A stretch of DNA of 64,000 nucleotides, taken from sequence record OZ413489.1. The stretch is one strand, 5' to 3'. The notes beneath the pieces were generated by a model. It had not been told where the DNA came from, did not search any database, and was given only the letters and a program-made list of their open reading frames with translations. The stretch is from a phage. Positions 16,634 to 60,448 of the stretch are shown one piece after another. The stretch's first letter is position 1, and every line of letters begins with the position of its first letter. The translations under genes and the position numbers were made by a program.

Positions 16634-16852
16634 TCACAGATCTCCAACAACTTCCCAAATACCCCAGTGAGCATCTATATCCTTGATAAAGTATCTTTCT
16701 CCACGGTTTGTCCACACACCTATCCCAACTTTACCATCTATCCCATTGTATACATCTGCCTCATACTCTTTGCCCGGTGTAAAGTGTACACCCATCATAA
16801 GGGCTGTTATTCCATTAGGATTTTTAAATTTAACAAATTTTACTTTGCTCAT
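16634..16852 (-). CDS. Hypothetical protein
   Basis: 72 aa ORF; adjacent to the next gene (stop/start 1 bp apart). Confidence 0.45.
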   Translation of the reverse strand: MSKVKFVKFKNPNGITALMMGVHFTPGKEYEADVYNGIDGKVGIGVWTNRGERYFIKDIDAHWGIWEVVGDL

Positions 16853-19305: not shown

Positions 19306-19551
19306 CTATAGCTCCACTAGCAAAGTGCTTTCAAAGTGCCGTTCATGCAAACCGTTGTAAGGGACCACTTCTACAACGCCATCACGGACATATGGGGCCA
19401 TCATGGTGGTATAATCTCCAAACGGGTTGGTATTGTCACTAACCACAACCACCTTCTGCCCTTCCTTGGCAGAGTGCCAAATAGATCTGCACTTCATCAG
19501 GTGTTCGAGAGCTCCAGGTAAAATTTTGTTACGTTCTTTACGGGTCTTCAT
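19306..19551 (-). CDS. Hypothetical protein
   Basis: 81 aa ORF, tightly packed. Confidence 0.45.
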   Translation of the reverse strand: MKTRKERNKILPGALEHLMKCRSIWHSAKEGQKVVVVSDNTNPFGDYTTMMAPYVRDGVVEVVPYNGLHERHFESTLLVEL

Positions 19552-32340: not shown

Positions 32341-34408
32341 ATTTATGGCATCTGCATACAACCGTTTCGGTGAGCCAAACCCGAAAGCAACTAAGTATAA
32401 AAGTGGGGGAAGTGTGAAACGAGACTATCGTGATGAAAAAGAGATTGAAACTGTAGAGACTGTTTTAGAAAATACTAAAATCGTCCCTGTCCCACAACAA
32501 AATATCGGTCTGATGGCTGCACAATATTTTGGTGTGCGATCAGCATTGTCCCAAGAAGACGGTGTGACAGTTACTGCAACATATTTCCCATATTACGACC
32601 GCTACGGGAATCTGTCCGGTTTCAAAAAGCGTGACTGGACGATTCCTAAAGAGCAAAGGGGCCATTTCTCCGTTGTTGGCATAGTAAAGGCCAACTCCCA
32701 GATGTTTGGTCAAAAGCTGTGTGCATCTTCCAACAACCGTAAGCAGATTAACGTTTGTGAGGGGGAAGGTGATGTTATTGCAGCATGGCAGGCTGCATAT
32801 CAGATACAAGTAAAAGGGATTCTCACCAACGCTAAAGCCCCGGCAAAGGTGAAGCAGTGGGCTAAAGAAGTCCAGGACGGGATCGATGCAGTTATCAACG
32901 GTGGTGATCTGGCAGGAAAACCATGCCTGCCTTTTGTTGGAATTAACTGTGGATGTGCAAACGCAGTAGATACTTTTGCAAACAATGAGAAGTTTATCCG
33001 TAGCTATGGAACAGTTGTGCTGGCAATGGATAACGATGCAGCTAACGAGGTAGAGAAGCAAAAACACGTCATTAAAGGTGTTGAGGCCACGCACAATATC
33101 GCAGCATTTTTGATGGCTGATAACGTTTACCACGTAGAATACCCTGGTGAAGTAAACGACCCTGACGGTGTAAAAGATATCCGAGACATGCTGAAGGCTA
33201 AAAAGCTGGAAGATATTGTCAACATGTTCCGGCATCCTGTTAAATATGTGCCTGATGCGGTGTCGGATTTAGAAGACTTCTCTATCGAGTCTTTGCGGAA
33301 AAAGACTTCCAACGGGGTAGATATCAGCGCAGAGTTCCCAAAACTGCAAAAAATGCTAAAAGGCTTGCACAAAGGGACACTCGTAATGCTTACAGGTCCA
33401 TCAGGTGGCGGTAAAACAACCGTAGCTAAAAAACTGGAACACTGTATTGCAAGATACCTAATGGACCCGACATGCCCGAAGGCTGATGACTATGAAGAGG
33501 ATGATCGTCTATGTATGATCCATCTTGAGGAGGACCCAGAGGAAGCAATTAACTCCTTGTATGCAAACCAGTTAGGGTTTGATGTTAAAGAGTTTGTTGA
33601 AGATCCTAGCCAGTTTTTAACTGATCAAGAACACGCAGAGATTCACCAATCATGGGCAAAAGCTGGAAAAATCAAAGTGTTCAAACATTTCGGGTCTATT
33701 CCGGTGGATGAGTTGATTACCAAGCTTAAGCAAATGGTTTGCCTGTACCATTGCCGTTATATTGTGCTGGATCACCTGTCCATGGTAATTTCAGGGCTTA
33801 ATGTTAAGGATGAGCGAAAAGAACTGGACATGGCTATGACTCAGCTGGCTGCGTTTTGTAAGCAGTTTAACGTGTTTATCTTGGTGATCGCTCACCTCAA
33901 ACGTACAGAGATTGTGCCTCCTAAGGACAAGGATGGTAACCCGTTACCTTTCTGGTATCCTGTGCGAAAAGAGAATTTGCGAGGATCGGCGGGGCTTGAA
34001 CAGTTGAGTTGGGTAGTCATAGGTGTCGAGGCCGAAGAAATGGTGGATCGTTCTCGTGGACGTGTCCGTCTGGTAGGTCTTAAAAACCGTCCAGCAAAAA
34101 CTCTAGGTATTGCTGACACTTTGGTTATGGACCCGCACACAGGTAAGTTCCATGATGCCAGTAATTGGTACTGGGACAAAGAAATGCAGATGTTTACAGA
34201 CGGAGAAGGTGGGGAGGTTGTTTGGAGACCTCAGGCCATGTTTGAGGACCAAGAGCATGCAGTTGTAGAAACACCTATGGGCAAGGTTGTAGCCGATAAG
34301 GTTGTAACTCCTACTATTAAGCCTGTTGACACGCAGGAAGACCTCCAGTACGATGATCCATCCTCTGATCCGGTCCCCGGTTTTGAGGATGATGAAACAC
34401 CTTTTTAA
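32330..34408 (+). CDS. Primase-helicase (TOPRIM + DnaB-like)
   Basis: 692 aa; TOPRIM-like VLAMDNDAANE; Walker A LTGPSGGGKTT; Walker B-like VLDHLS in the C-terminal half. Confidence 0.8.
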   Translation: MGSKFMASAYNRFGEPNPKATKYKSGGSVKRDYRDEKEIETVETVLENTKIVPVPQQNIGLMAAQYFGVRSALSQEDGVTVTATYFPYYDRYGNLSGFKKRDWTIPKEQRGHFSVVGIVKANSQMFGQKLCASSNNRKQINVCEGEGDVIAAWQAAYQIQVKGILTNAKAPAKVKQWAKEVQDGIDAVINGGDLAGKPCLPFVGINCGCANAVDTFANNEKFIRSYGTVVLAMDNDAANEVEKQKHVIKGVEATHNIAAFLMADNVYHVEYPGEVNDPDGVKDIRDMLKAKKLEDIVNMFRHPVKYVPDAVSDLEDFSIESLRKKTSNGVDISAEFPKLQKMLKGLHKGTLVMLTGPSGGGKTTVAKKLEHCIARYLMDPTCPKADDYEEDDRLCMIHLEEDPEEAINSLYANQLGFDVKEFVEDPSQFLTDQEHAEIHQSWAKAGKIKVFKHFGSIPVDELITKLKQMVCLYHCRYIVLDHLSMVISGLNVKDERKELDMAMTQLAAFCKQFNVFILVIAHLKRTEIVPPKDKDGNPLPFWYPVRKENLRGSAGLEQLSWVVIGVEAEEMVDRSRGRVRLVGLKNRPAKTLGIADTLVMDPHTGKFHDASNWYWDKEMQMFTDGEGGEVVWRPQAMFEDQEHAVVETPMGKVVADKVVTPTIKPVDTQEDLQYDDPSSDPVPGFEDDETPF

Positions 34409-34466: not shown

Positions 34467-36896
34467 ATGAGCATGTGGTCGTTCGACTTTGAGTCATCCG
34501 GTTTGCTGGAAGACCCAGATCTTTATTATCACTGCGGCCTGTTTAAAGAGCTGAATAAGAACCGTTTTATGCTGTTCCTTCCTCTAAATGACCGCACACA
34601 CTACTCCGAGGAGGATATAGAAAAGGCTAAGAACTTCATTCTGGCAAAGAAAACTCTTTATAAAGATTTTGAAGTTCGCATAGCAGATTTTTCAGAGTTG
34701 GAAGGTTGGCTTACAGGAAATTCTGACTGGTCACCAACAGCTTTGAACTGCCATAACTGCTACAGTTATGACTTTATGCTGATGGAAAGATTATCTGGTA
34801 TTCATTTTGATATGTTCCGTGATCCTAAATGTATGGGGACTATCAACGATCACCAGGTTAACCTGTTTGATACGTTGGCGATGAGCCGAATCTTGTGGCC
34901 TGATCGCCCTTTACCAAAAGGTTGTCCGGACTCTGTATTCAACCCGGTTACTAAGAAAATGCAGCCTGTTGGTCCTCACGGCCTTATGGCATGGGGCTAC
35001 GCCCTTGGTAACCAGAAAGTTCAAATTGATGACTGGCGCGATCTTCCGTTGTGGAAGTATGTGGATCGTGTATTCGAGGACGTTATCATCCAGGAGCTGC
35101 TCTGGAAAGAGCTGGTAGCGGAATCAAAAGGTGTATTCTACGGCAAATCTGACATGCAGAACTTTATGTACGATCCGGCCAAAGAGAAGCCGAAAGGGTT
35201 CAAGAAGATCACCTGGAAGAACGCATTACGTCGAGGCATGCTGCAGCACTTCCTGATGGAGCTGCAGGCCCGTCAGGGTGTATACTTCGACATAGATGGA
35301 GCTATTGCTTTACGTGACCGTTGCGATGCGTGGATGAAAGAAATCGCTGATCGTGTTGAACCACAACTACCTTTAAAAGAGCTGTCAATGTCTCAGCGGC
35401 CCAAGTTCCCTGAAAAGCCGTTTAACCAAGACGGGACAATCTCTAATAATGGTTGGAAATGGTTAAAAGATAAGCTTGGCTATCCTGTAGACATGAGTGC
35501 TTTAGAGTTCAAAGCCCTGCCTAAGCGAGCATTTACCTCTACAGGAGATGTCAGCAAGATGGGGATAAAATGGTGTGAAGAGATGGGCTGCAAAGACCCC
35601 GATAAGATGGCTGATTTCTTGAGAGGCTATATTAAGGGCACCTCCACACCACAACCCTTACCTAAAGAGCTGATGGATCAGGCAATAAGTGATCTGCAGC
35701 AGAAGCGAATGCCTGACTGCAAGATACCTATGAAAATCAGCAATCAGGACGACATCAAGCGATACCTAATCAGTGCTGGTTGGCTCCCAACAATGTGGAG
35801 AACTAAAGATGTAACTAAAGACAGCAAGAAGAAAGCTTTACCTGATGCAGATGTTGATGCACGAGTATATGCATATATGGACGAGCTTTTGGAGTCAGAG
35901 TATTGTGACCTAATTATCAACTTCTGGAACAAAACTGATGCTAAGTTCCAGACAACCGTGCACAAGTTCCGAAGCTTTCCTAACTCCGAAAGGATTAAAA
36001 AGGAAGTATTCGGGAAAATACGTAGAAAAGCCAGGGCACTTATTACTTCTCCGCAACTGAAAGATACGTTTGGACACCTATGCCCAAATCTTGAAAAATT
36101 GAACGGAGAGATGGCTAAAGATATCGTCTTGTGGTTATCATTGCGAAACCGCAGATCGGTCCTTGATCCAATCAAGGAGGATAAGGTTGATACTGGTCTT
36201 CTTAATCACCCACGTTTGAAGATTGACCATAAGCTTCCTGCTAAAAGCTCTGGATTAACAAACACTTCCAGACAGAAACACAGTATTTGTGCAAACATGC
36301 CTAAACCATCTCCTAAAGTAGTTATGGGTAAAGAGATGCGTAGTCTGTGGGGTGTTCCTCCAGGATACTTTGAGATCGGTATTGACGGGTCCAACTTAGA
36401 GCAGCTCATCGGGGCTTGGGGTGCCTTTGAGTTCGACAACGGCTTGTATTATGATGTTGTAAGTAACGGAGACGCACACCAAAACAATGCTGAGGCATAT
36501 ACAAAAGTGGCAGGCAGAGAGGTGTCCCGTAACGACGGTAAACCTATCACGTATGGGGTTATGTACGGGGCACAAAAAGATAAAGTTGCAGATATGCTGG
36601 ACATCTCCCCAGAGTTGGGACAAAGGGTAATCGATGCACTCTGGGATGCCAACCCAGGTCTTAAGGGGCGCAAAGAGGATCTGGAGAAATTCTGGGAAGC
36701 AACAGGTAAGAAGTTTATCTACTCTTTTGATGGTCATGCTATCTGGACCCGATCTAAACACTCTTTACTTAATGCATACCAACAAAATGGCGGTGCATCG
36801 TTGTGTGACTTAGTTGGAATACTCATGCACCACCAGATGGTGAAGCGTGGGTGGTACGATGAAGGTGTTCGTCGTATTATTTATTACCATAAATAA
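34467..36896 (+). CDS. Family A DNA polymerase
   Basis: 809 aa; RBS aaggagaac; exonuclease-like segment (LFDTLAMSR); palm motifs DGSNLEQL (motif A-like) and KPITYGVMYG (motif B-like). Confidence 0.8.
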   Translation: MSMWSFDFESSGLLEDPDLYYHCGLFKELNKNRFMLFLPLNDRTHYSEEDIEKAKNFILAKKTLYKDFEVRIADFSELEGWLTGNSDWSPTALNCHNCYSYDFMLMERLSGIHFDMFRDPKCMGTINDHQVNLFDTLAMSRILWPDRPLPKGCPDSVFNPVTKKMQPVGPHGLMAWGYALGNQKVQIDDWRDLPLWKYVDRVFEDVIIQELLWKELVAESKGVFYGKSDMQNFMYDPAKEKPKGFKKITWKNALRRGMLQHFLMELQARQGVYFDIDGAIALRDRCDAWMKEIADRVEPQLPLKELSMSQRPKFPEKPFNQDGTISNNGWKWLKDKLGYPVDMSALEFKALPKRAFTSTGDVSKMGIKWCEEMGCKDPDKMADFLRGYIKGTSTPQPLPKELMDQAISDLQQKRMPDCKIPMKISNQDDIKRYLISAGWLPTMWRTKDVTKDSKKKALPDADVDARVYAYMDELLESEYCDLIINFWNKTDAKFQTTVHKFRSFPNSERIKKEVFGKIRRKARALITSPQLKDTFGHLCPNLEKLNGEMAKDIVLWLSLRNRRSVLDPIKEDKVDTGLLNHPRLKIDHKLPAKSSGLTNTSRQKHSICANMPKPSPKVVMGKEMRSLWGVPPGYFEIGIDGSNLEQLIGAWGAFEFDNGLYYDVVSNGDAHQNNAEAYTKVAGREVSRNDGKPITYGVMYGAQKDKVADMLDISPELGQRVIDALWDANPGLKGRKEDLEKFWEATGKKFIYSFDGHAIWTRSKHSLLNAYQQNGGASLCDLVGILMHHQMVKRGWYDEGVRRIIYYHK

Positions 36897-37163
36897 CATT
36901 GTGGCTTCATAGAGTAATCTATGTCGAATAACCTCTTTAACTGCGGGAAGCCTAAACCTTATGGCAAGGTAATCCGCAACGAAGCGCTCAAAAGAGCGAA
37001 CGCTCAGAGGCCATTCCGAAAGGAAGTAGACCAGCAAGTGCGGTCGAAATGGGAGGATTCCTGTGGTTGCTTATCATAGGAATATGAGATGGTCCGATCC
37101 TACGTGAAAACGTATGGCTATGCACGTAATGGTGCGGGGTAGCTTAACGACCTACCTGAACTA

Positions 37164-37520
37164 TTGGATGAGTACCAACTTCAAGTGCCTGACACACCGA
37201 AGTATAAGACTGTGTACACCTTCGACACAATTGAAGAACTGGAAGCATTTAAGGCAGAGCAGGAAGCCAAACTTCATGTGTTCGACGGTCATAAGTACAA
37301 AAAGGCACGCAAGGATGAGGACGGAAACGAAGTGGTTGACAGAGACGGAAACACGGTGTACGATCCTATCCTGAACGATGACGGAAAGCTTGAACTTATC
37401 TGGAGCCCTGTGGGTGAAATGGTGGTACATTGCTTCTGGCAAGCTTCTAAAATGATGGGAGTCCCGTTCCAGATCACAGGTGAATACTTGTGTGGTCGTA
37501 ATTGGGGTGATTGTCACTAA
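37164..37520 (+). CDS. Hypothetical acidic protein
   Basis: 118 aa; TTG start in the track with a weak RBS, start uncertain; preferred over the overlapping 37114-37374 frame on composition. Confidence 0.4.
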   Translation: MDEYQLQVPDTPKYKTVYTFDTIEELEAFKAEQEAKLHVFDGHKYKKARKDEDGNEVVDRDGNTVYDPILNDDGKLELIWSPVGEMVVHCFWQASKMMGVPFQITGEYLCGRNWGDCH

Positions 37521-37569
37521 TGTAAACTATCAACACATGGAAGTGTTGTTGAGCAAAGAGGAGACTTTT

Positions 37570-37854
37570 ATGGTAGTAGAACCAACAAAAACATTTACAT
37601 CCATGACTATCCCTGTTATTATGCAGGTGGAGTGTGTTCAGGTATCTCAAGTGTGGCCTGGCACCAAAATCCCAACAGGGCCTGATTTCTTTCAGGTTGG
37701 GAAAGTGTACAATGTCTGGAAGGCACCAGATTGTTACCCTTTCATTAAAGATGACCGTGGGATGCTGTGGTACCTTGGAAATGACTTGACACTGCACCTT
37801 GGGAATACTATTATTGCAGTATTCAGACTTAACAAGAAGGAGACCGATCAATGA
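37570..37854 (+). CDS. Small protein, KDD-G-x-W paralogue family
   Basis: Track ORF from 37480; strong RBS aagaggag before the in-frame ATG at 37570; motif FIKDDRGMLWYL. Confidence 0.5.
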   Translation: MVVEPTKTFTSMTIPVIMQVECVQVSQVWPGTKIPTGPDFFQVGKVYNVWKAPDCYPFIKDDRGMLWYLGNDLTLHLGNTIIAVFRLNKKETDQ

Positions 37855-38078
37855 CGACTTTGGTTAAAGCTACCTTTGTAGAAGAAAAGATGACAGACCT
37901 GTCATTCTTTAAAGAAGGAAAGACCTACGAGGTTTATTACGATAAAGCTCGTGCAAACAAAATGATTAAAGACGAGGAAGGGGTTGCCTGGTATATCTCT
38001 CACCTGGCAAACGGTGAGTATCATATCTACGGAACCACTTTGCTTGCCAAGTTTGTAGTTGTTGAAGAGGACCTATGA
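37851..38078 (+). CDS. Small protein, KDD-G-x-W paralogue family
   Basis: 75 aa; motif IKDEEGVAWYI; ATGA overlap. Confidence 0.5.
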   Translation: MTTLVKATFVEEKMTDLSFFKEGKTYEVYYDKARANKMIKDEEGVAWYISHLANGEYHIYGTTLLAKFVVVEEDL

Positions 38079-38269
38079 AAGTAAAGTATCTTGCTGAAGG
38101 TATGAATAGGTATTTTACCCTTGGTGAAGAATATTGGCCCTTTACAAACAACGGCGATGTCTACGTGAAAGATAATTTCGGCACGCCGTGGTTTCTGCAC
38201 TCTAATGGGCTGGGATACTCCATTTACTGCGGTGCAGTGAACAACACAACTCTTGCAGAGTTCGTTTAG
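38075..38269 (+). CDS. Small protein, KDD-G-x-W paralogue family
   Basis: 64 aa; motif VKDNFGTPWFL; ATGA overlap. Confidence 0.5.
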   Translation: MKVKYLAEGMNRYFTLGEEYWPFTNNGDVYVKDNFGTPWFLHSNGLGYSIYCGAVNNTTLAEFV

Positions 38270-38279
38270 AGGAGGTAGG

Positions 38280-38651
38280 ATGTTAGTAAAAGGTACCCAC
38301 ACAGTCAAACAACGTATTGAAGTTGAGATTGATGATTGTGAGCTGAAGCATATTTTACGGTCATGCTCCAACGTTTTGCTCCTTAGTATTCTTCAGGAGC
38401 GAGCGGAGAACGAGTTCTTAAATGCATTGGCAGGCCGTCCCGGTGACTTCTGTGTGCGTAAGCGTGGTGACAACAAGTCGTGGTTGTGGGAGATCGATGC
38501 CGACTGGGATTACCACAAAAATGAGGGTATAGATGAGCCTATTCGTGAACTGACGGACAAAGAGATTCAGATGTACAATGAAGTTTGTCATTGGGCAACA
38601 CGCCAACAAATTTACCTAGACCCTGTGTGGCTGATTGAAAATAGTCGTTGA
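38280..38651 (+). CDS. Hypothetical protein
   Basis: Track ORF from 38253; ATG at 38280 after RBS agaggaggtagg. Confidence 0.5.
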   Translation: MLVKGTHTVKQRIEVEIDDCELKHILRSCSNVLLLSILQERAENEFLNALAGRPGDFCVRKRGDNKSWLWEIDADWDYHKNEGIDEPIRELTDKEIQMYNEVCHWATRQQIYLDPVWLIENSR

Positions 38652-38676
38652 CAAGAAGTAAGGCTAGATGTAAGAT
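38648..38676 (+). promoter_or_regulatory. sigma70-type promoter
   Basis: TTGACA-17 bp-TAAGAT upstream of 38728. Confidence 0.55.
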
Positions 38677-38727
38677 ACTCCCCACAAACAGAGTATTGAT
38701 TGTTAAATAATTAAGGAGACCTCTAAG

Positions 38728-38982
38728 ATGAAAATCATGTTGAAACCAGAATGCGTTGCAAACGACCGAGCTTTTAAAGATTGCACACTTGGCGCTACTT
38801 ATGAAGCAGAGTTTTGTGAGAACCCTTTGGTAAAAGCCCTTTTGGAAGAAGGGGCCCCTCTATCACAAGAAGAGCTTGATGAGCTGGAAAACTCAGCACA
38901 GTGCCTTACCTTTAAAGATGATGAAGGAGACTCTGTCTGGTGCACTGTTAATGAAGTAGTTTTTGTAAAACCTGAACATTAA
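38728..38982 (+). CDS. Small protein, KDD-G-x-W paralogue family
   Basis: 84 aa; RBS taaggagac; motif FKDDEGDSVWC. Confidence 0.5.
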   Translation: MKIMLKPECVANDRAFKDCTLGATYEAEFCENPLVKALLEEGAPLSQEELDELENSAQCLTFKDDEGDSVWCTVNEVVFVKPEH

Positions 38983-38985
38983 TAC

Positions 38986-39014
38986 TTGACAACAGTGATG
39001 GGGCCTAATATAAT
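38986..39014 (+). promoter_or_regulatory. sigma70-type promoter
   Basis: TTGACA-17 bp-TATAAT; falls inside the track ORF 38986-39306, which argues for a downstream start. Confidence 0.55.
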
Positions 39015-39045
39015 GGCCCTATCAAAACGAAAGGGGACCACAGCA

Positions 39046-39306
39046 ATGACCAAACAATATCAACGAATTAAAGCCAAGGTTAAGCCAGACTATCTGGAGA
39101 AAGACTCTGCTTTTCGGGACTGCACAGCCGACAAAGTTTACACAGGGGCTGTCCTGTTGAACGATAAACTTGAAGTAGATGTGCTGGGTAAAGAGGCCGT
39201 TATCGAGGATGACAACGGTGACTGGGTTTTCTGCACCACACGAGAGCTAGAAGTCTTAGAATATTTCGGTGAAATCTTCAACTCCTTAGACGACGAGGAA
39301 GCGTGA
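39046..39306 (+). CDS. Small protein, KDD-G-x-W paralogue family
   Basis: ATG at 39046 with RBS aaagggga; motif IEDDNGDWVFC; homologous to 38728-38982. Confidence 0.5.
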   Translation: MTKQYQRIKAKVKPDYLEKDSAFRDCTADKVYTGAVLLNDKLEVDVLGKEAVIEDDNGDWVFCTTRELEVLEYFGEIFNSLDDEEA

Positions 39307-39695
39307 TGAAAAATATTTGGGATATCGATATCTTTGAAGCCTCTAAGCTTGACGGTGCTGATGGAGTGATTATGGTGTCTGATGGCAAGGCAACACTAAC
39401 TTCCGGAGATATCATCTATGCCTTGGACGAGCTGGCGCTTCTGAAATCTACCGGTAACACTTTGGAGGAGCGTCTTCAAGGATTCGCTTTCAAAGAAGGT
39501 ACAAATACAGCCATGATGTGCACCACACGGACAGTTCAGGTTGGTAACGGTGTCTATATGATTATTGCTGTGTGTCCTAAATTCAGCAACGTCAACAAAG
39601 ATGATGCTGACGCGGTCAACGATGTGGTTGTTCTCTTCGTGGGTGACGCTATGGCAGATCTGATGAATGCAGGAGAAGCAGCAAATGAAGACTGA
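39303..39695 (+). CDS. Hypothetical protein
   Basis: 130 aa; ATGA overlap. Confidence 0.45.
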   Translation: MMKNIWDIDIFEASKLDGADGVIMVSDGKATLTSGDIIYALDELALLKSTGNTLEERLQGFAFKEGTNTAMMCTTRTVQVGNGVYMIIAVCPKFSNVNKDDADAVNDVVVLFVGDAMADLMNAGEAANED

Positions 39696-39987
39696 AAACA
39701 TCACCCCAGCAGGGTTCTTAAAAGTATACCGTGAACTGCTATATACTACAGAGGACAGTGTTCTAGAGTATCCAGAATATCTTTTGCTGTATAAGTATCT
39801 GCAGGAGGCTGGTGAAAATCTGCCAGTTAGTGCAGAAGGTGGTCCAAACTGGATATACAGCGCATGGAGAAAGGTTGACATTCTCCCAGACCCAGGTAAA
39901 GATATGGTAGTTTGGCAGCTTATCAACAACATCGGGATTCCAATCTTTGATGAAGCTGTTAAAATCTATTTTGAACTTGACGATTAA
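39685..39987 (+). CDS. Hypothetical protein
   Basis: Track ORF from 39667; ATG at 39685 follows RBS aggagaag. Confidence 0.45.
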   Translation: MKTENITPAGFLKVYRELLYTTEDSVLEYPEYLLLYKYLQEAGENLPVSAEGGPNWIYSAWRKVDILPDPGKDMVVWQLINNIGIPIFDEAVKIYFELDD

Positions 39988-40004
39988 TATCAGGAGACCT
40001 TAAG

Positions 40005-40250
40005 ATGACTGAAGCAGTTGCTCGCGCAGGACAGAAAGTACGTTGTGTTGAAGTAGGTTTTGGTGGCAAAGGGTGTCAAAACTTGACTCAAGGTAAGGAA
40101 TACGCTGTTATCTCTGGGGGTGGAGACGAAAGTATTGTGTTCGAGGGCCACATCCTGGATGCTGAAAACTTTGAAATCTTTGACGACGATGGGGACCCGA
40201 TCACCTGCCTGCTGGACGGGAATTGGGGAACTTTCGAAGTGATTGGCTAA
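40005..40250 (+). CDS. Small protein, KDD-G-x-W paralogue family
   Basis: 81 aa; RBS caggagac; motif FDDDGDPITC. Confidence 0.5.
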   Translation: MTEAVARAGQKVRCVEVGFGGKGCQNLTQGKEYAVISGGGDESIVFEGHILDAENFEIFDDDGDPITCLLDGNWGTFEVIG

Positions 40251-40333
40251 CAAATACCTATTGTAATTTACAGAAGGGGATGCTAAAATAGTGTCTCCTT
40301 CTATGTTGTTCAAATAAAATCGGAGATTCCATA

Positions 40334-40699
40334 ATGGAACAAATGAACGATCAAGCGTCGGTTGCGATGAACGAGCAAGAACAACCTCAAGAATTTTTCT
40401 TAGGGTTAAGTAAAGATCAAGTGTCTCTTCTGCTAGTGCTTTCTTCTTTCATGGGAAGACTTCAGGAGCTTACACAACAGCCAGAGGCTGAACAATTATT
40501 CCAGGCTCTGCGTGAAGAAGAAAAATATCGTCGTTTGGACTATGCCTTAGGTTGGGTAGCTCAACAACGAGATATGCTGATGGCCCTCTCTGGGACCACA
40601 AGTTTTGCAATGGGCCTGTTGGCTCAAGTTCAGGACAAATTAATTCAAGCAGGGTTTGCACACACGGCAAACACTAACGAAGAACAAGGAGATAAATAA
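40334..40699 (+). CDS. Hypothetical helical protein
   Basis: 121 aa; RBS ggagatt; stop overlaps the next ATG. Confidence 0.45.
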   Translation: MEQMNDQASVAMNEQEQPQEFFLGLSKDQVSLLLVLSSFMGRLQELTQQPEAEQLFQALREEEKYRRLDYALGWVAQQRDMLMALSGTTSFAMGLLAQVQDKLIQAGFAHTANTNEEQGDK

Positions 40700-41925
40700 T
40701 GAGCGTTATTCAACAATTCGCTAACCCGATGAATCCGCGTGAAACTGTTTTACTAGCTCACGGCATGATTAAACGTGTCAGCATCAAGCCTATCAAAGGT
40801 GCTGATCCTACAACAGGTATTAAAACCACTGTGTGGCAAGGTAAGAAAATTGAATCCAGCCACACCATCTCTTTACTGATTTCTGAACTGGATTCCTCTG
40901 ATAACCTACTTCAAGGTGGTGAAGAAGTTTGGATCAGTATGGGCGATAAGCTGCTTAAACCAGGTCATCAAGACTCTGTCTCTGTTAAAATTGATGACAA
41001 GTGGGAAACCGTAACGCCAGGATGGATCGTAAATATCCCTTTGAAGGCAAACGAGCATAACGGTAAGACCTACTACAAAGGCTCACTGGCTAAGATGGTT
41101 AAGCTGGGTGCAGGAGAGGCTCCAGCAGCGACTCAGCAGCAAAAACAGCAACAAGGTGCACAATCACAAGGCCAGAAGCAGAAACCTCAGCAGAATGCCA
41201 ATCAGGACGTTTTACGCATCTATGGTGATGTGACTCAGATTGTTGGCAACGTGGTTACTGTTAATGACCACAAGATTGGCGAAGGTGCTATGGTTGTCAC
41301 TGATGAGCAGCTTAAAGACCTGGTGGTAGGTGGTCGTGTTGCAGCCATTGTTGACAAAGACACCGGAAACATTATCAGTGGCTTCAAGGCCTATCCTCCT
41401 AAGGCAGAGAACGGCACTCAAGGCTCTGGTGGCAAGCGTAAATCCTCTTACGACCCTATCGGTGTGGAGACGGGACATAGCATCAATGCGTTGCAGATCA
41501 TCCTGGATCGCGGGTTTAAGGTGGACGACCCACTAGGCGTGGCTAAAACACTGCACGTAGTCACCATTGAGCTTAAGAAAGAGTATGCTCAAGCCACCAA
41601 CCGAACTGAAGATGAAGTAGGTGCCAGTGTCGGCAATGCGGTGTTGAACGCTTGTCGCCGTATTGACAAGAAAACGAAAGTTGATGATTTTGCAGCGGCA
41701 ATTACTGCAGAAGCAAAAGATGTCTTGACTAATCTGGCTGAGCCGTTGTACGATTGGATCAAGAACGGTGCTGGGTCCACTGACCATCAAGAACCTCAAG
41801 CTGCCAAACAGGAAGCAGCTCCACAGCAAAACACTGTAGACGCTCCTCCTGTAAATGACGAGGAAGATGACCCGATGGATCAGAATCCAGCACAGTATGA
41901 GTTCGATGACTCGATCCCTTTCTGA
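40699..41925 (+). CDS. Single-stranded DNA-binding protein-like
   Basis: 408 aa; Q-rich low-complexity linker (QQQKQQQGAQSQGQKQKPQQ) and an acidic C-terminal tip ...YEFDDSIPF resembling the SSB C-terminal interaction motif (DDDIPF). Confidence 0.55.
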   Translation: MSVIQQFANPMNPRETVLLAHGMIKRVSIKPIKGADPTTGIKTTVWQGKKIESSHTISLLISELDSSDNLLQGGEEVWISMGDKLLKPGHQDSVSVKIDDKWETVTPGWIVNIPLKANEHNGKTYYKGSLAKMVKLGAGEAPAATQQQKQQQGAQSQGQKQKPQQNANQDVLRIYGDVTQIVGNVVTVNDHKIGEGAMVVTDEQLKDLVVGGRVAAIVDKDTGNIISGFKAYPPKAENGTQGSGGKRKSSYDPIGVETGHSINALQIILDRGFKVDDPLGVAKTLHVVTIELKKEYAQATNRTEDEVGASVGNAVLNACRRIDKKTKVDDFAAAITAEAKDVLTNLAEPLYDWIKNGAGSTDHQEPQAAKQEAAPQQNTVDAPPVNDEEDDPMDQNPAQYEFDDSIPF

Positions 41926-41933
41926 GGTCAGTT

Positions 41934-42512
41934 ATGAAATGCAAACGTTGTGGAGAGGACAAGGAGGCCTCCGACTTCTACACCAGTAACAAATCAACGT
42001 GCAAAGAGTGTTGCAAGAAGGCCAGCAGGGAGGCTGACCAATTTGCTAAAGACTCTTCAGAAAAAGGTGTAATACGTGTGTTGTACAAGGCTCAAAAGTG
42101 CAACAGCAAGCAAAGAGGTCACCCTCCTCCGACTTACACCAAAAAAGAGTTTAAGGAGTGGCTATACCTTAACGGTTACAAAGAGTTGTATGATCAGTGG
42201 GTAGCCAGCGGATACGACAAAAGGAAAAAGCCTTCTTGTGACAGGATAGATGATTTCAAAGGGTACTCTTTTGATAATATCCGTTTAACGACTTGGGGAG
42301 AAAATAAAGACAAGCAGACAGAGGATATTCTGTTACATAGAAGCACCAGCGGTAGACGGTGCAAAAATGTAAGGAGGTTGGACATGAATGGTAACGTTCT
42401 TAAAGAATGGGTATCTCACAACTCTTGTAGCAGAGAAACCGGAATATATATTGGTTACTACATTCATGAAAAAATTCCAGCTCCAGATGGATACTTATAC
42501 GAATACTTTTAA
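41934..42512 (+). CDS. HNH-family homing endonuclease
   Basis: 192 aa; N-terminal CxxC...F...CxxCC zinc motif (KCKRCGEDKEASDFY...CKECCK) and an HNH-like core (SCDRIDDFKGYSFDNIRLTTWGEN). Confidence 0.6.
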   Translation: MKCKRCGEDKEASDFYTSNKSTCKECCKKASREADQFAKDSSEKGVIRVLYKAQKCNSKQRGHPPPTYTKKEFKEWLYLNGYKELYDQWVASGYDKRKKPSCDRIDDFKGYSFDNIRLTTWGENKDKQTEDILLHRSTSGRRCKNVRRLDMNGNVLKEWVSHNSCSRETGIYIGYYIHEKIPAPDGYLYEYF

Positions 42513-42527
42513 CACATAACTAACATA

Positions 42528-42556
42528 GCCCTGCCCGAAAGGGTGGGGCATTTTTG
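42528..42556 (+). terminator. Rho-independent terminator (repeated hairpin, copy 2)
   Basis: gccctgcccgaaagggtggggc + atttttgtat; same hairpin as at 31531. Confidence 0.65.
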
Positions 42557-44928: not shown

Positions 44929-45261
44929 ATGGTAACATTAGAAAGACGTAAAGCTATTGCCGCCACACTGGCAGACATCTTTTGGGATTGTAATTTAAAA
45001 TCTACCCGAAATTGTGGCGCATCTGTAGATGTATTATTCCCACGGCCTACTATTGTTGCAATGGGCAACCTTCTTGATGTGGTATATGGAGCATGGGACA
45101 AGGAAGGTGGATTCTATATCTGGCAACCTGACTACGGGACTTGGAAAGAGGTTAGTGGTTCTACGGACTTCACTCCTGCAGTGGCTAAAATGGATGGCTG
45201 GAAAATCTATGTCGGTAACGACATGGAACTGAAAGGCGAAATTGTTTACTGGTTACCTTAA
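44929..45261 (+). CDS. Hypothetical protein
   Basis: 110 aa. Confidence 0.45.
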   Translation: MVTLERRKAIAATLADIFWDCNLKSTRNCGASVDVLFPRPTIVAMGNLLDVVYGAWDKEGGFYIWQPDYGTWKEVSGSTDFTPAVAKMDGWKIYVGNDMELKGEIVYWLP

Positions 45262-45282
45262 GAGAATGCAGGAGATAAAGTT

Positions 45283-45528
45283 ATGAACAAAGGGTGGACA
45301 TTTGTAGACGGCGTTAAAAACATGCCTCTAGGAAAGTATATTGTAGCCATGGCTGATGAGGATGGCAATGTGGATTTCGGAGCTTGCGAGGTTGTTCTTG
45401 CAGGATCTGGTAACTATGTGGACAAAACCGGGATAATTAACGGTCAGTTCTACTTTGATCACAACCCTGTTGTAGCGTATATGGCTATGCCAGAGTTTAA
45501 GTTCCCAAAGGATGGTGCTGATGTTTAA
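45283..45528 (+). CDS. Hypothetical protein
   Basis: 81 aa; RBS caggagat. Confidence 0.45.
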   Translation: MNKGWTFVDGVKNMPLGKYIVAMADEDGNVDFGACEVVLAGSGNYVDKTGIINGQFYFDHNPVVAYMAMPEFKFPKDGADV

Positions 45529-45718
45529 GCTTAAATCCGCATGGAGCATTGCTGTGGGTGATGAGATCCGTATCCCCGGTGGGAAGACCATTATGAAGAT
45601 ATCTCGTATTGAGTACGAAGGTGACCGTGTATTCCACATCTTCGCAGAAGATGGTCGAGAAATTTATATACAGGCAGGTTCTCACATTTATATCCGTAAG
45701 AAAGGGGACGACAAATGA
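45512..45718 (+). CDS. Hypothetical small protein
   Basis: 68 aa; overlaps neighbours at both ends. Confidence 0.4.
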   Translation: MVLMFKLKSAWSIAVGDEIRIPGGKTIMKISRIEYEGDRVFHIFAEDGREIYIQAGSHIYIRKKGDDK

Positions 45719-47060: not shown

Positions 47061-47228
47061 ATGAAAGGTAATATGATCCCCCTAGAAAATGTAGCTATTA
47101 ATGACGCTGAGGCTATCGCCCTGGTTGAAAAGGCTATGGCGGGAGCGTTGGAACATAAAGAAGAGTACGAAAAATGGTGGTTAACCTGGCGGGGGCGGCA
47201 GGTGGATTCTATCATAAAAATAATTTAA
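47061..47228 (+). CDS. Small hypothetical protein (55 aa)
   Basis: Strong RBS gaagaggaggt, 7 nt before the ATG; not in the >=60 aa track. Confidence 0.45.
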   Translation: MKGNMIPLENVAINDAEAIALVEKAMAGALEHKEEYEKWWLTWRGRQVDSIIKII

Positions 47229-47235
47229 AATAGTC

Positions 47236-47265
47236 GTTGACAACAAGGTTAATCATGGTATTATT
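47236..47265 (+). promoter_or_regulatory. sigma70-type promoter
   Basis: TTGACA-17 bp-ATTATT (or TATTAT at an 18-bp spacer). Confidence 0.5.
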
Positions 47266-47314
47266 ACCCTACAAGGTGAACAACACCGCACTAACCAGTA
47301 AAGAGGATAAATTT

Positions 47315-47512
47315 ATGAACGCATACGGGATCAAAGTACGTCGCAACACTCGCCAGGTGGTCACCAATCAAGTGATTTGCCGGGTGGATGTAACCATCAA
47401 CAACGGGCAAGGCCTTTATAAATTTCGTCGCGGTCATAGCTATACCCTGCAACAGCTTAATCGTTGCGCCCTGACAAAAGGTCAGATCAACCATTGGTTT
47501 AATAAAAAATAA
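47315..47512 (+). CDS. Hypothetical small basic protein
   Basis: Track ORF 47237-47512 begins inside the promoter; ATG at 47315 with RBS aaagaggat. Confidence 0.45.
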   Translation: MNAYGIKVRRNTRQVVTNQVICRVDVTINNGQGLYKFRRGHSYTLQQLNRCALTKGQINHWFNKK

Positions 47513-47515
47513 GTA

Positions 47516-47544
47516 TTGACATACAGTCCGACACCAAATACACT
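47516..47544 (+). promoter_or_regulatory. sigma70-type promoter
   Basis: TTGACA-17 bp-TACACT. Confidence 0.5.
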
Positions 47545-47576
47545 AAAAGCACAAAAGACACTAAGAGGATAAAATC

Positions 47577-47975
47577 ATGAAAACCACTACCTTTAATTTT
47601 GATAATGCAGACTTTTCTTTTTCTGATGTCAAGAACTGCCGCCGTGATCGTGGATTTTACAAGGCTTATAATCTGGTGGGCCTGGACGATGACAATAATT
47701 TGCACGAAGTAGCTGAGATCCGGTATTATGCCGCCGCCAGCGGTAACACTAACTACTGCGTTTTTTGGATACACGACAACAAGAACAATAAGTACGGTTA
47801 TACTGGTGGCAAGGCTAGCGGTCACGGTTATGATAAAGCCAACGCTGCACTTGAAAGCGCATTAAATGCCATGGGAATCACTGCCGACGGCTGGATCTAT
47901 GAAGAAGAGTTTTTGGCGGCACTTGCTGCCCACCTGGGCTATAAAAAGCACATTGTAACATGCGCCCACGAATAA
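47577..47975 (+). CDS. Hypothetical protein
   Basis: 132 aa; RBS taagaggat. Confidence 0.5.
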   Translation: MKTTTFNFDNADFSFSDVKNCRRDRGFYKAYNLVGLDDDNNLHEVAEIRYYAAASGNTNYCVFWIHDNKNNKYGYTGGKASGHGYDKANAALESALNAMGITADGWIYEEEFLAALAAHLGYKKHIVTCAHE

Positions 47976-58370: not shown

Positions 58371-58682
58371 CTATACCCACGAGGGCTTATCAAGGTTGGA
58401 GTAGCTGAAAGGTGTCAAAAGGTGACTGTCAAAATCTCTCAAACTATCCAAATCTTTTTCCTCGTCCTGACACCATCTGTGCCTACATTTGTTGTTGTAG
58501 TGCATGGAATGCATAGCGTTCTGCAACTTAACAGGCACAAGTGATTCAGGAGTAGATAGTATTGTTGGGTATGCCAGAACCACCTCAAACAGTGGAAACA
58601 CATCGAAACTAAAGTCTACCTCTGCAGAGGTTGATGGCATATAGGAGTATTTAGCCGCCTTTGTAGACATAATCCACCTCAC
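58371..58682 (-). CDS. Hypothetical protein
   Basis: 103 aa; start overlaps the upstream stop. Confidence 0.5.
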   Translation of the reverse strand: MRWIMSTKAAKYSYMPSTSAEVDFSFDVFPLFEVVLAYPTILSTPESLVPVKLQNAMHSMHYNNKCRHRWCQDEEKDLDSLRDFDSHLLTPFSYSNLDKPSWV

Positions 58683-59011
58683 ACAGGTTTGATAATACCT
58701 TCACCGAATAGCTCTTCGTATCTAATCTTGTCCGGATCCCACTCCTGTATAATTTCGAAGACAATATCCAACCCAGGAACAATCACTTCTCCAGTGTCAA
58801 GCTTAGCAAGAACAAAACCGGAAGGTTGAATGGTTTCCCAGTTACGGCGATCAGAATAAAATACTTCGAAAATATCACCAACCTCAATCCGTTTCTGTTG
58901 CTCAAGATGCTGAAGGTTCTCTTTCATACGGATGCAGCGTATTTTTCGTGCAGGCCATAGACCACCTGCATCACGTTCATTCAATTCTTTTACAGTGATC
59001 GGTATACCCAT
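58679..59011 (-). CDS. Hypothetical protein
   Basis: 110 aa; RBS gaaggagac. Confidence 0.5.
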   Translation of the reverse strand: MGIPITVKELNERDAGGLWPARKIRCIRMKENLQHLEQQKRIEVGDIFEVFYSDRRNWETIQPSGFVLAKLDTGEVIVPGLDIVFEIIQEWDPDKIRYEELFGEGIIKPV

Positions 59012-59400: not shown

Positions 59401-59652
59401 TTAACGTTCTACAAAAATACCGTTCAGTTCAATAACCAGGAATTTCTGGTCTTCACTATCGTCTCGTGCCAGCACCTCACAGACGTATCGGTCATCCCCA
59501 TCATCATCGCAGTCAAATACAAGACTGAGGACTTTATCATGGTAAACCTTCGCCACTACCGCCTCGTAAGTATTGCCGATTGTGAATCCAAGATAATCTC
59601 CGATGCATTTGACAACAACATGGTCTCCAGCATTTAAGTCAATCTTCGTCAT
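59401..59652 (-). CDS. Hypothetical protein
   Basis: Track ORF to 59718; RBS aaggag precedes the internal Met (MTKIDLNAGDHVV) at about 59652. Confidence 0.45.
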   Translation of the reverse strand: MTKIDLNAGDHVVVKCIGDYLGFTIGNTYEAVVAKVYHDKVLSLVFDCDDDGDDRYVCEVLARDDSEDQKFLVIELNGIFVER

Positions 59653-60160: not shown

Positions 60161-60448
60161 TCATAGTGCCTCTAAGATTTCATATCCTTCGGGTCGGAAT
60201 ACAAGCCACTCCGTGGCTCCGTTTGGTCGATACGCTTTATACAGAACAACCTGATCTCGGCACATGCACATGGCTACATAGTTTTCATCCACACCTGCAG
60301 CCTGCATTGCATCTTCTTCTCCGGCAACCGCTTTGCTTACAACTTCCTTGGTAGGCAGGTGTGCGATCAGCTCGTCACCATCATTAATTCCAAAATGGCT
60401 GAGTTCTCCATTGGTATCTTTGATCTTAATCTTAACCAGATCTTTCAT
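60161..60448 (-). CDS. Hypothetical protein
   Basis: 95 aa; start overlaps the upstream stop. Confidence 0.5.
   Translation of the reverse strand: MKDLVKIKIKDTNGELSHFGINDGDELIAHLPTKEVVSKAVAGEEDAMQAAGVDENYVAMCMCRDQVVLYKAYRPNGATEWLVFRPEGYEILEAL

Follow-up and report, generated by a model that had tools for sequence, protein, structure and literature searches.

Six small open reading frames (ORFs), p1 to p6, lie downstream of a family-A DNA polymerase gene in phage record OZ413489.1, of which 64,000 nucleotides were analyzed here (the window; coordinates are positions in it). Profile comparisons and iterative sequence searches place them in three diverged families, A (p1–p3), B (p4–p5) and C (p6 together with a gene elsewhere in the window, p7), of one superfamily. 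The relationship is remote and has the p6 family as its hub, and we infer a common ancestry for the three groups. The six are small (64–94 amino acids [aa]), soluble, single-domain proteins, predicted from models of p2 and p5 to be beta-barrels, and the sequence motif that first drew attention to them falls in the same hairpin of both models.

The first-pass annotation had presented the six as one expanded paralogous family sharing a C-terminal motif, F(I/V)KDDxGxxW(Y/F). Only p1 fits this pattern exactly; the corresponding segments are MIKDEEGVAWY (p2), YVKDNFGTPWF (p3), TFKDDEGDSVW (p4), VIEDDNGDWVF (p5), and IFDDDGDPITC (p6), and a six-way alignment has four invariant columns (the start Met and a single Tyr, Asp, and Gly). 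When Smith-Waterman scores are set against 500 shuffles, the significant pairs are p1–p2 (z = 11.4), p2–p3 (5.6), p1–p3 (3.5), and p4–p5 (11.3), and all cross-group pairs are near noise (z from −0.1 to 2.7). In PHROG each protein belongs to its own family, p4 and p5 show reciprocal cross-hits, and all cross-hits of p1–p6 stay inside the groups. The idea of a single paralogous family thus holds within p1–p2–p3 and within p4–p5 and, between groups, only loosely, at the level of profiles, but not as six close paralogues.

Word-index homologue searches gave matches confined to Vequintavirus, and hence very shallow profiles, which hhalign links through the short motif only (P = 0.043 for A against B; 0.085 and 0.0024 for the others). 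A deeper p6-family profile aligns with group A over 49 columns (P = 3.5e-4, probability 37%) and with group B over 45 columns (P = 1.6e-3, probability 16%). Both alignments run in order through a GKxY strand and the DDxG hairpin, and the C–A alignment also takes in the C-terminal strand. As a control, the columns of the target alignments were shuffled, keeping composition and conservation. The C–A score of 26.0 compares with 9.6 ± 2.2 for the shuffles (maximum 17.7, 0/109 reaching it) and the C–B score of 22.4 with 9.7 ± 2.2 (0/109); for A–B the score is 15.9 against 9.8 ± 1.9, and one of 108 shuffles reaches it. Jackhmmer searches of a database seeded with reversed decoys agree: from p5 (inclusion E 0.01) the search joins p4, p6, and the whole p6 family, and from p2 (inclusion E 0.05) it joins p1, p3, the p6 family, and p7, with no decoy admitted in either case. 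A hidden Markov model (HMM) of the p6 family ranks p5, p3, p4, and p2 inside the top ten of the 827 ORFs of the window and of phage Bas11. Because the shuffled profiles never reach the C–A or C–B scores and the searches from p5 and p2 admitted no decoy, the similarity exceeds compositional bias, and the objection foreseen in the first pass, a motif conserved no more than composition predicts, does not apply.

It could still be argued that the groups are not true paralogues at all, and that independent small beta-proteins converged on an Asp/Asn-x-Gly turn, a Gly-Lys-x-Tyr strand, and an acidic, beta-rich composition. Pairwise scores at noise level across groups, low hhalign probabilities, and the marginal direct A–B comparison fit such a view, as does the failure of the p5 model to match 9axb, the structure that p2 resembles (see below). 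Many small ORFs of Bas11 and the window that look unrelated contain similar motifs as well, and Asp-rich loops draw in repeat proteins as well during exhaustive searching. We nevertheless regard convergence as unlikely, given the outcome of the column shuffles and of the decoy-controlled searches that join the groups, the HMM ranking, the fact that the alignments span three segments in the same order, and the placement of the motif in equivalent secondary-structure elements of both models.

An exhaustive HMMER search from p6 returned 12 divergent homologues of 69–102 aa with the signature GDKVKCV...YLTxGKxYxV...FEIxDDxGDxIYC...WExV. A jackhmmer search from p7 (inclusion E 0.01) recovers p6 and 17 of the 17 p6-family homologues in the test set with no decoys, and on these sequence grounds p7 can be taken firmly as a genuine p6 paralogue, encoded on the opposite strand outside the six-gene cluster. 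The case of p8 is different. Its layout is like that of the other members and it has PHROG cross-hits with Bas11 gp61, and its jackhmmer search reaches gp61 only (p2 appears at E = 0.14); it is a candidate superfamily member, firmly tied to Bas11 gp61 alone. The original list of six was therefore incomplete, having missed both genes. PHROG keeps all eight proteins in eight separate function-less families (Table 1), of which they are full-length members (E-values 1e-27 to 3e-67), and records no superfamily link, fold, or paralogy among them. Pfam has no family above threshold for any member. DUF7244 matches the C-terminal half of p6 at 14.5 bits (E = 0.039), below its gathering threshold of 27 bits, so that p6 is not a member, and matches of this weak kind occur in five of 18 p6-family members (p6 and four others; best E = 0.021).

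At least six other small proteins of Bas11 (MZ501085.1) have a GKxY...DDxGD...hydrophobic-strand layout (gp41, gp47, gp48, gp61, gp71, and the N-terminus of gp79), and some of these look-alikes were recruited by the decoy-controlled searches. In the window, the small ORFs 58682–59011 (−), 60164–60448 (−), and 19309–19551 (−) carry hairpin-like D-x-G segments and terminal hydrophobic strands; the searches made here gave no reliable link from them to the superfamily. ORF 45512–45715 (+) was rejected as a member when its iterative search admitted its own reversed decoy. All four may be additional small beta-proteins.

AlphaFold2 predicts p2, from the group A alignment, as an all-beta protein (predicted local distance difference test score [pLDDT] 90.4, predicted template-modelling score [pTM] 0.79), with strands at residues 2–10, 25–31, 36–40, 46–48, 51–53, 56–60, and 64–70 and a short helix at 12–16. 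The p5 model (pLDDT 83.6, pTM 0.71) has strands at 5–12, 31–37, 50–54, 60–64, and 68–78 and a helix at 14–19. In both, the GKxY segment forms beta2, and the motif makes up a beta3-turn-beta4 hairpin, its Asp...Gly forming a five-residue turn (D41–V45 in p2 and D55–D59 in p5, each flanked by the third and fourth strands listed). The common layout is thus beta1, a short helix or loop, beta2 (GKxY), the beta3-turn-beta4 hairpin (hIKDDxGxxW), and a C-terminal strand. Lying in the same hairpin of both models, the motif would seem to be a structural signature and not a functional site. The KDDxG segment may supply the hairpin with its tight turn and its folding core, with no catalytic or ligand-binding role, a proposal that would account for its being the only part conserved across the families. 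Group A is confidently modelled as a six-stranded barrel with an extra hairpin, of the type of Bas11 Gp54, and group B as a five-stranded SH3-like barrel without that hairpin; group C, we infer, shares the group B layout. The difference agrees with a ~12-residue insertion ahead of the last strand of group A in the six-way alignment, and with SH3 domains being the nearest fold to Gp54 (PMC11578894). Among individual members, p1 differs from p2 by a ~21-residue insert in the beta1-beta2 loop, in p4 a helix is predicted to be inserted between beta2 and the hairpin, and the C-terminal tail of p5 is acidic.

The resemblance to Gp54 holds at the level of fold. The group A model matches the Gp54 structure (PDB 9AXB; the complex with CapRel-SJ46 is 9ERV, and the sequence is from MZ501085.1). 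Structure prediction, a check proposed in the first pass, gave barrels with the motif in the equivalent hairpin for p2 and p5, and a match to 9AXB for group A only. Gp54 is a non-essential 66-aa protein that triggers the CapRel defence; when it binds CapRel, part of its barrel unfolds and the protein clamps onto the sensor through beta-strand addition, and it has been suggested that Gp54 may inhibit another defence (PMC11578894). Close homologues of Gp54 from Bas5, Bas8, Bas10, and SECphi27 do not activate CapRel-SJ46 (PMC11578894). Gp54 has been described as having a rare barrel topology with relatives known only in close T1-like phages. A Foldseek search of BFVD with the p2 model found ~50 uncharacterized phage proteins (template-modelling [TM] scores 0.65–0.81), mostly from T1-like and other enterobacterial phages. 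These neighbours were tried as a structural bridge between groups A and C and did not provide one, their phages showing no overlap with the carriers of p6 homologues, whose distant members are metagenomic; a 78-aa match labelled "isim" in BFVD is not a gene of this cluster. By sequence, Gp54 stands apart. When PDB sequences were searched with profiles A4 and A7, only chance matches came up and not 9axb, hhalign scores of the groups against Gp54 were inside the shuffle range (reached by 6/60, 20/60, and 49/60 shuffles), and jackhmmer from Gp54 found nothing in the decoy-controlled test set. Gp54 is a T1-like siphovirus protein of phrog_7421 that has, by eye, YHSG at the equivalent turn in place of KDDxG, whereas the window groups belong to other PHROGs.

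Region 36900–41000 is 97%–99% identical to more than 100 Vequintavirus (rV5-like) E. coli myoviruses (99.1% for the BASEL phage MaxTheCat). The rV5 annotation lists all six ORFs as hypothetical proteins (ORFs 224, 223, 222, 220, 219, and 216), directly downstream of the polymerase and followed by a 408-aa protein and an endonuclease. All six start with ATG (6/6) behind a GGAG-type ribosome-binding site (RBS), and all are under purifying selection relative to phage FV3: ratios of non-synonymous to synonymous differences (pN/pS) are 0.02–0.26, and the differences fall mostly at third codon positions. The ORFs proposed in the first pass are thus real, expressed, constrained genes. Two further proposals were that some of the genes are translationally coupled and some have their own promoter. 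The ATGA overlaps of p1/p2 and p2/p3 are consistent, as read from the sequence, with translational coupling, and sigma-70-like promoters precede p4 and p5. A promoter-like site at 39977–40006 was ruled out for p6, as its −10 element overlaps the p6 start codon. For p1 and p5, the first-pass starts, which give shorter proteins than the rV5 annotation, are more plausible, since the phrog_12922 profile is 94 aa long and the consensus promoter covers the upstream start of p5. That the region is "early" is not established by these signals: it is a replication module with sigma-70-like promoters, yet the rV5 genome paper reports such promoters throughout the genome.

Table 1. Coordinates of the genes and signals discussed (window positions, except for Bas11)
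Feature	Position	Strand	Length	Group	rV5 ORF	PHROG	Remarks
p1	37570..37854	+	94 aa	A	224	phrog_12922	AGGAG RBS; pN/pS 0.02
p2	37851..38078	+	75 aa	A	223	phrog_12623	Modelled Gp54-like small beta-barrel
p3	38075..38269	+	64 aa	A	222	phrog_12802	pN/pS 0.16
p4	38728..38982	+	84 aa	B	220	phrog_12544	pI 4.2; pN/pS 0.10
p5	39046..39306	+	86 aa	B	219	phrog_11936	Modelled five-stranded SH3-like barrel
p6	40005..40250	+	81 aa	C	216	phrog_4927	pI 4.1
p7	16634..16852	−	72 aa	C		phrog_30425	Shares phrog_10169 with p6; ATG; AAGGA RBS; KVKFVKF...FTPGKEYEA...HWGIWEVVG
p8 (candidate)	59401..59652	−	83 aa			phrog_12851	AAGGAG RBS; pI 4.3; GDHVVVKC...FTIGNTYEAVV...VFDCDDDGDDRYVCEV
Sigma-70-like promoter upstream of p4	38648..38676	+					TTGACA-17-TAAGAT, 10/12; rV5 promoter P220 annotated at equivalent site
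Sigma-70 promoter upstream of p5	38986..39014	+					TTGACA-17-TATAAT, 12/12, perfect consensus
Group I intron in polymerase gene	36881..37166	+					Rfam RF00028 match at 36881..37116
408-aa protein	40699..41925	+	408 aa			phrog_4477	
Bas11 look-alikes (MZ501085.1)	33759..33929 (+), 37336..37581 (−), 37578..37943 (−), 42369..42554 (+), 45147..45338 (+), 47216..47653 (+)

The proteins differ considerably in charge. Those of p4, p5, p6, and p8 are strongly acidic (isoelectric point [pI] 4.1–4.3, net charge −10 to −12 in ~80 residues), and group A and p7 are near neutral. By eye, these proteins show neither signal peptides nor transmembrane segments. Groups B and C both conserve a cysteine ahead of the GKxY strand and another five residues past the turn Gly, at matching positions. 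In some Vequintavirus genomes p1 variants (P0025 and P0027) carry an 11-residue internal duplication (CHPFIKEKAPN, ahead of CYPFIKDDRG). In one contig a p5 variant (P0064) runs on in frame into the following gene, for a product of 131 aa, and a match of the A5 profile to 39303–39692 is an artefact of this fused ORF in the underlying alignment.

By tblastn and word-index searches, groups A and B are restricted to the genus Vequintavirus, where they occur in essentially every genome (116 records each, group B at two places per record). PVP-SE1 (Seunavirus) and CR3 (Certrevirus) have homologous polymerases, with no A, B, or C member downstream of the polymerase. The p6 family is wider. Its members occur in siphophages of Klebsiella, Vibrio, and Aeromonas, in the T1-like BASEL phage PaulSarasin, in other large myoviruses, and on metagenomic contigs that measure about 42–50 kb and about 150 kb; two unrelated backbones again carry the gene inside the replication module. 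A lineage-specific expansion, as initially proposed, accordingly describes groups A and B, but not p6, whose family extends to other phages, and the fold of group A is itself common among phage proteins.

What the proteins do can be stated only conditionally. We favour a reading in which groups A and B arose by tandem duplication within Vequintavirus, the copies differing mainly in loops and surface charge. Each copy would be made from promoters of the host RNA polymerase alongside the replication genes, would act stoichiometrically, and, more speculatively, would bind a host protein, in host takeover or counter-defence. Binding might proceed by beta-strand addition, by analogy with Gp54 and CapRel, and host immunity could in turn sense such proteins. 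For the host-interaction or anti-defence role proposed in the first pass, the one indirect support is the fold that group A is predicted to share with Gp54, a non-essential protein bound by a host defence protein. Host or defence proteins are favoured as partners because of the Gp54 analogy, the small size and multiplicity of the proteins, their divergence in loops and charge, and the host-type promoters. Taken as a whole (a three-family barrel superfamily, a structural motif, tandem duplication, and host-protein binding), we consider this reading evenly balanced between right and wrong.

Several observations weigh against it. Literature and database searches gave no functional data and no assigned function for these genes. 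They are core genes, well conserved in more than 110 Vequintavirus genomes, and such conservation would be more usual for housekeeping accessory factors than for anti-defence genes in an arms race. The link from A to C requires the relaxed inclusion E of 0.05, and the hhalign probabilities are just 16%–37%. The p2 and p5 models, which cover groups A and B, were compared by their secondary-structure elements, and the group B model does not recover 9axb. With group A predicted to be akin to Gp54 by fold only, and with Gp54 showing no detectable sequence similarity to any group and being known solely as a trigger of CapRel, the analogy carries little functional information.

The main rival is that these barrels are accessory factors of the replication module, binding the phage replisome (polymerase, primase-helicase, or an SSB-like protein) or single-stranded DNA or RNA. 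SH3-, KOW-, and Tudor-like barrels often bind nucleic acids. The cluster sits between the DNA polymerase and a 408-aa protein with a tip like that of the single-stranded DNA-binding protein (SSB), with an endonuclease beyond; distant p6-family genes directly follow a primase-polymerase/helicase or lie between a helicase and a DUF2800 nuclease; and throughout the genus the genes belong to the core set and evolve under strong purifying selection. Against this, the polymerases of PVP-SE1 and CR3 are without A, B, or C members at this position, which indicates that the replisome does not require them, proteins with net charges of −10 to −12 are poor nucleic-acid binders, and phage accessory genes commonly sit in replication modules through shared timing of expression. 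We regard a replication role as doubtful.

The acidity of p4, p5, p6, and p8 suggests another possibility, that these members are DNA mimics or metal-binding decoys inhibiting host DNA-binding enzymes such as restriction enzymes and nucleases. Their low pI and high negative charge in ~80 residues recall the phage DNA mimics Ocr and Ugi, which are similarly small and acidic, and p8 carries an exact DxDxDG-type loop (DCDDDG). T7 Ocr, which is small, acidic, and dispensable, inhibits one defence while a second one senses it, a parallel that has been drawn for Gp54 (PMC11578894). For the window proteins the parallel is conceptual only, as the fold of Ocr is unrelated, and we regard a role in DNA mimicry or metal binding as very improbable. 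A more specific form of the host-binding reading would have the cluster consist of Gp54- or SH3-like "clamp" barrels, each evolved to bind and neutralise, or to decoy, a different host target (an immune sensor or a protein of DNA metabolism) by unfolding in part and adding a beta-strand. This is improbable too; if true, barrels of the Gp54 type would be a widespread, previously unrecognized class of phage counter-defence modules and immune triggers.

What is new here is that group A is predicted to be structurally akin to Gp54 of Bas11; otherwise these are ordinary small phage beta-barrel proteins. That a three-gene rV5-like family is predicted to adopt the Gp54 fold, and that ~50 phage proteins match it, suggests that small accessory proteins of phages commonly use this fold. 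The seven or eight small, conserved proteins now form a panel of candidates for inhibiting defences, triggering them, or assisting replication. Their practical value lies in an annotation better than "hypothetical protein" and in a shortlist for screens; no new mechanism is established.

The neighbouring genes gave some further observations. A group I intron (Rfam RF00028, 64.7 bits, E = 4e-14) splits the family-A DNA polymerase gene ahead of the cluster. With splice sites behind the CAT codon (His, ending at 36890) and behind G37166, ...RRIIYYH would continue into DEYQLQV..., and the joined sequence aligns straight through motif C of T7 DNA polymerase (VHDEIQV). The rV5 genome paper reports introns in the terminase gene only and treats the polymerase as a 775-aa protein; GenBank records show two separate "DNA polymerase" coding sequences with spurious small ORFs in the gap. 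The content of the gap varies: the window intron has no ORF, phages isim (L003 2115–2621) and FV3 (L004 1–443) have an HNH endonuclease, PVP-SE1 (L006 4273–4866) has a LAGLIDADG endonuclease, and the polymerase gene of CR3 (L007 2664–5300) is uninterrupted. This looks like a cycle of homing-endonuclease gain and loss at one insertion site.

The 408-aa protein has a Gln/Gly-rich linker and a C-terminus, ...YEFDDSIPF, that resembles the tip of E. coli SSB (DFDDDIPF); from its sequence it may be a phage SSB or a mimic of the SSB tip. Finally, 16 unannotated "Campylobacter phage" records (MG065644–MG065690; host C. jejuni, 75–143 kb) are 96%–97% identical to this Vequintavirus region, and are probably mislabelled or derived from contaminating coliphages.

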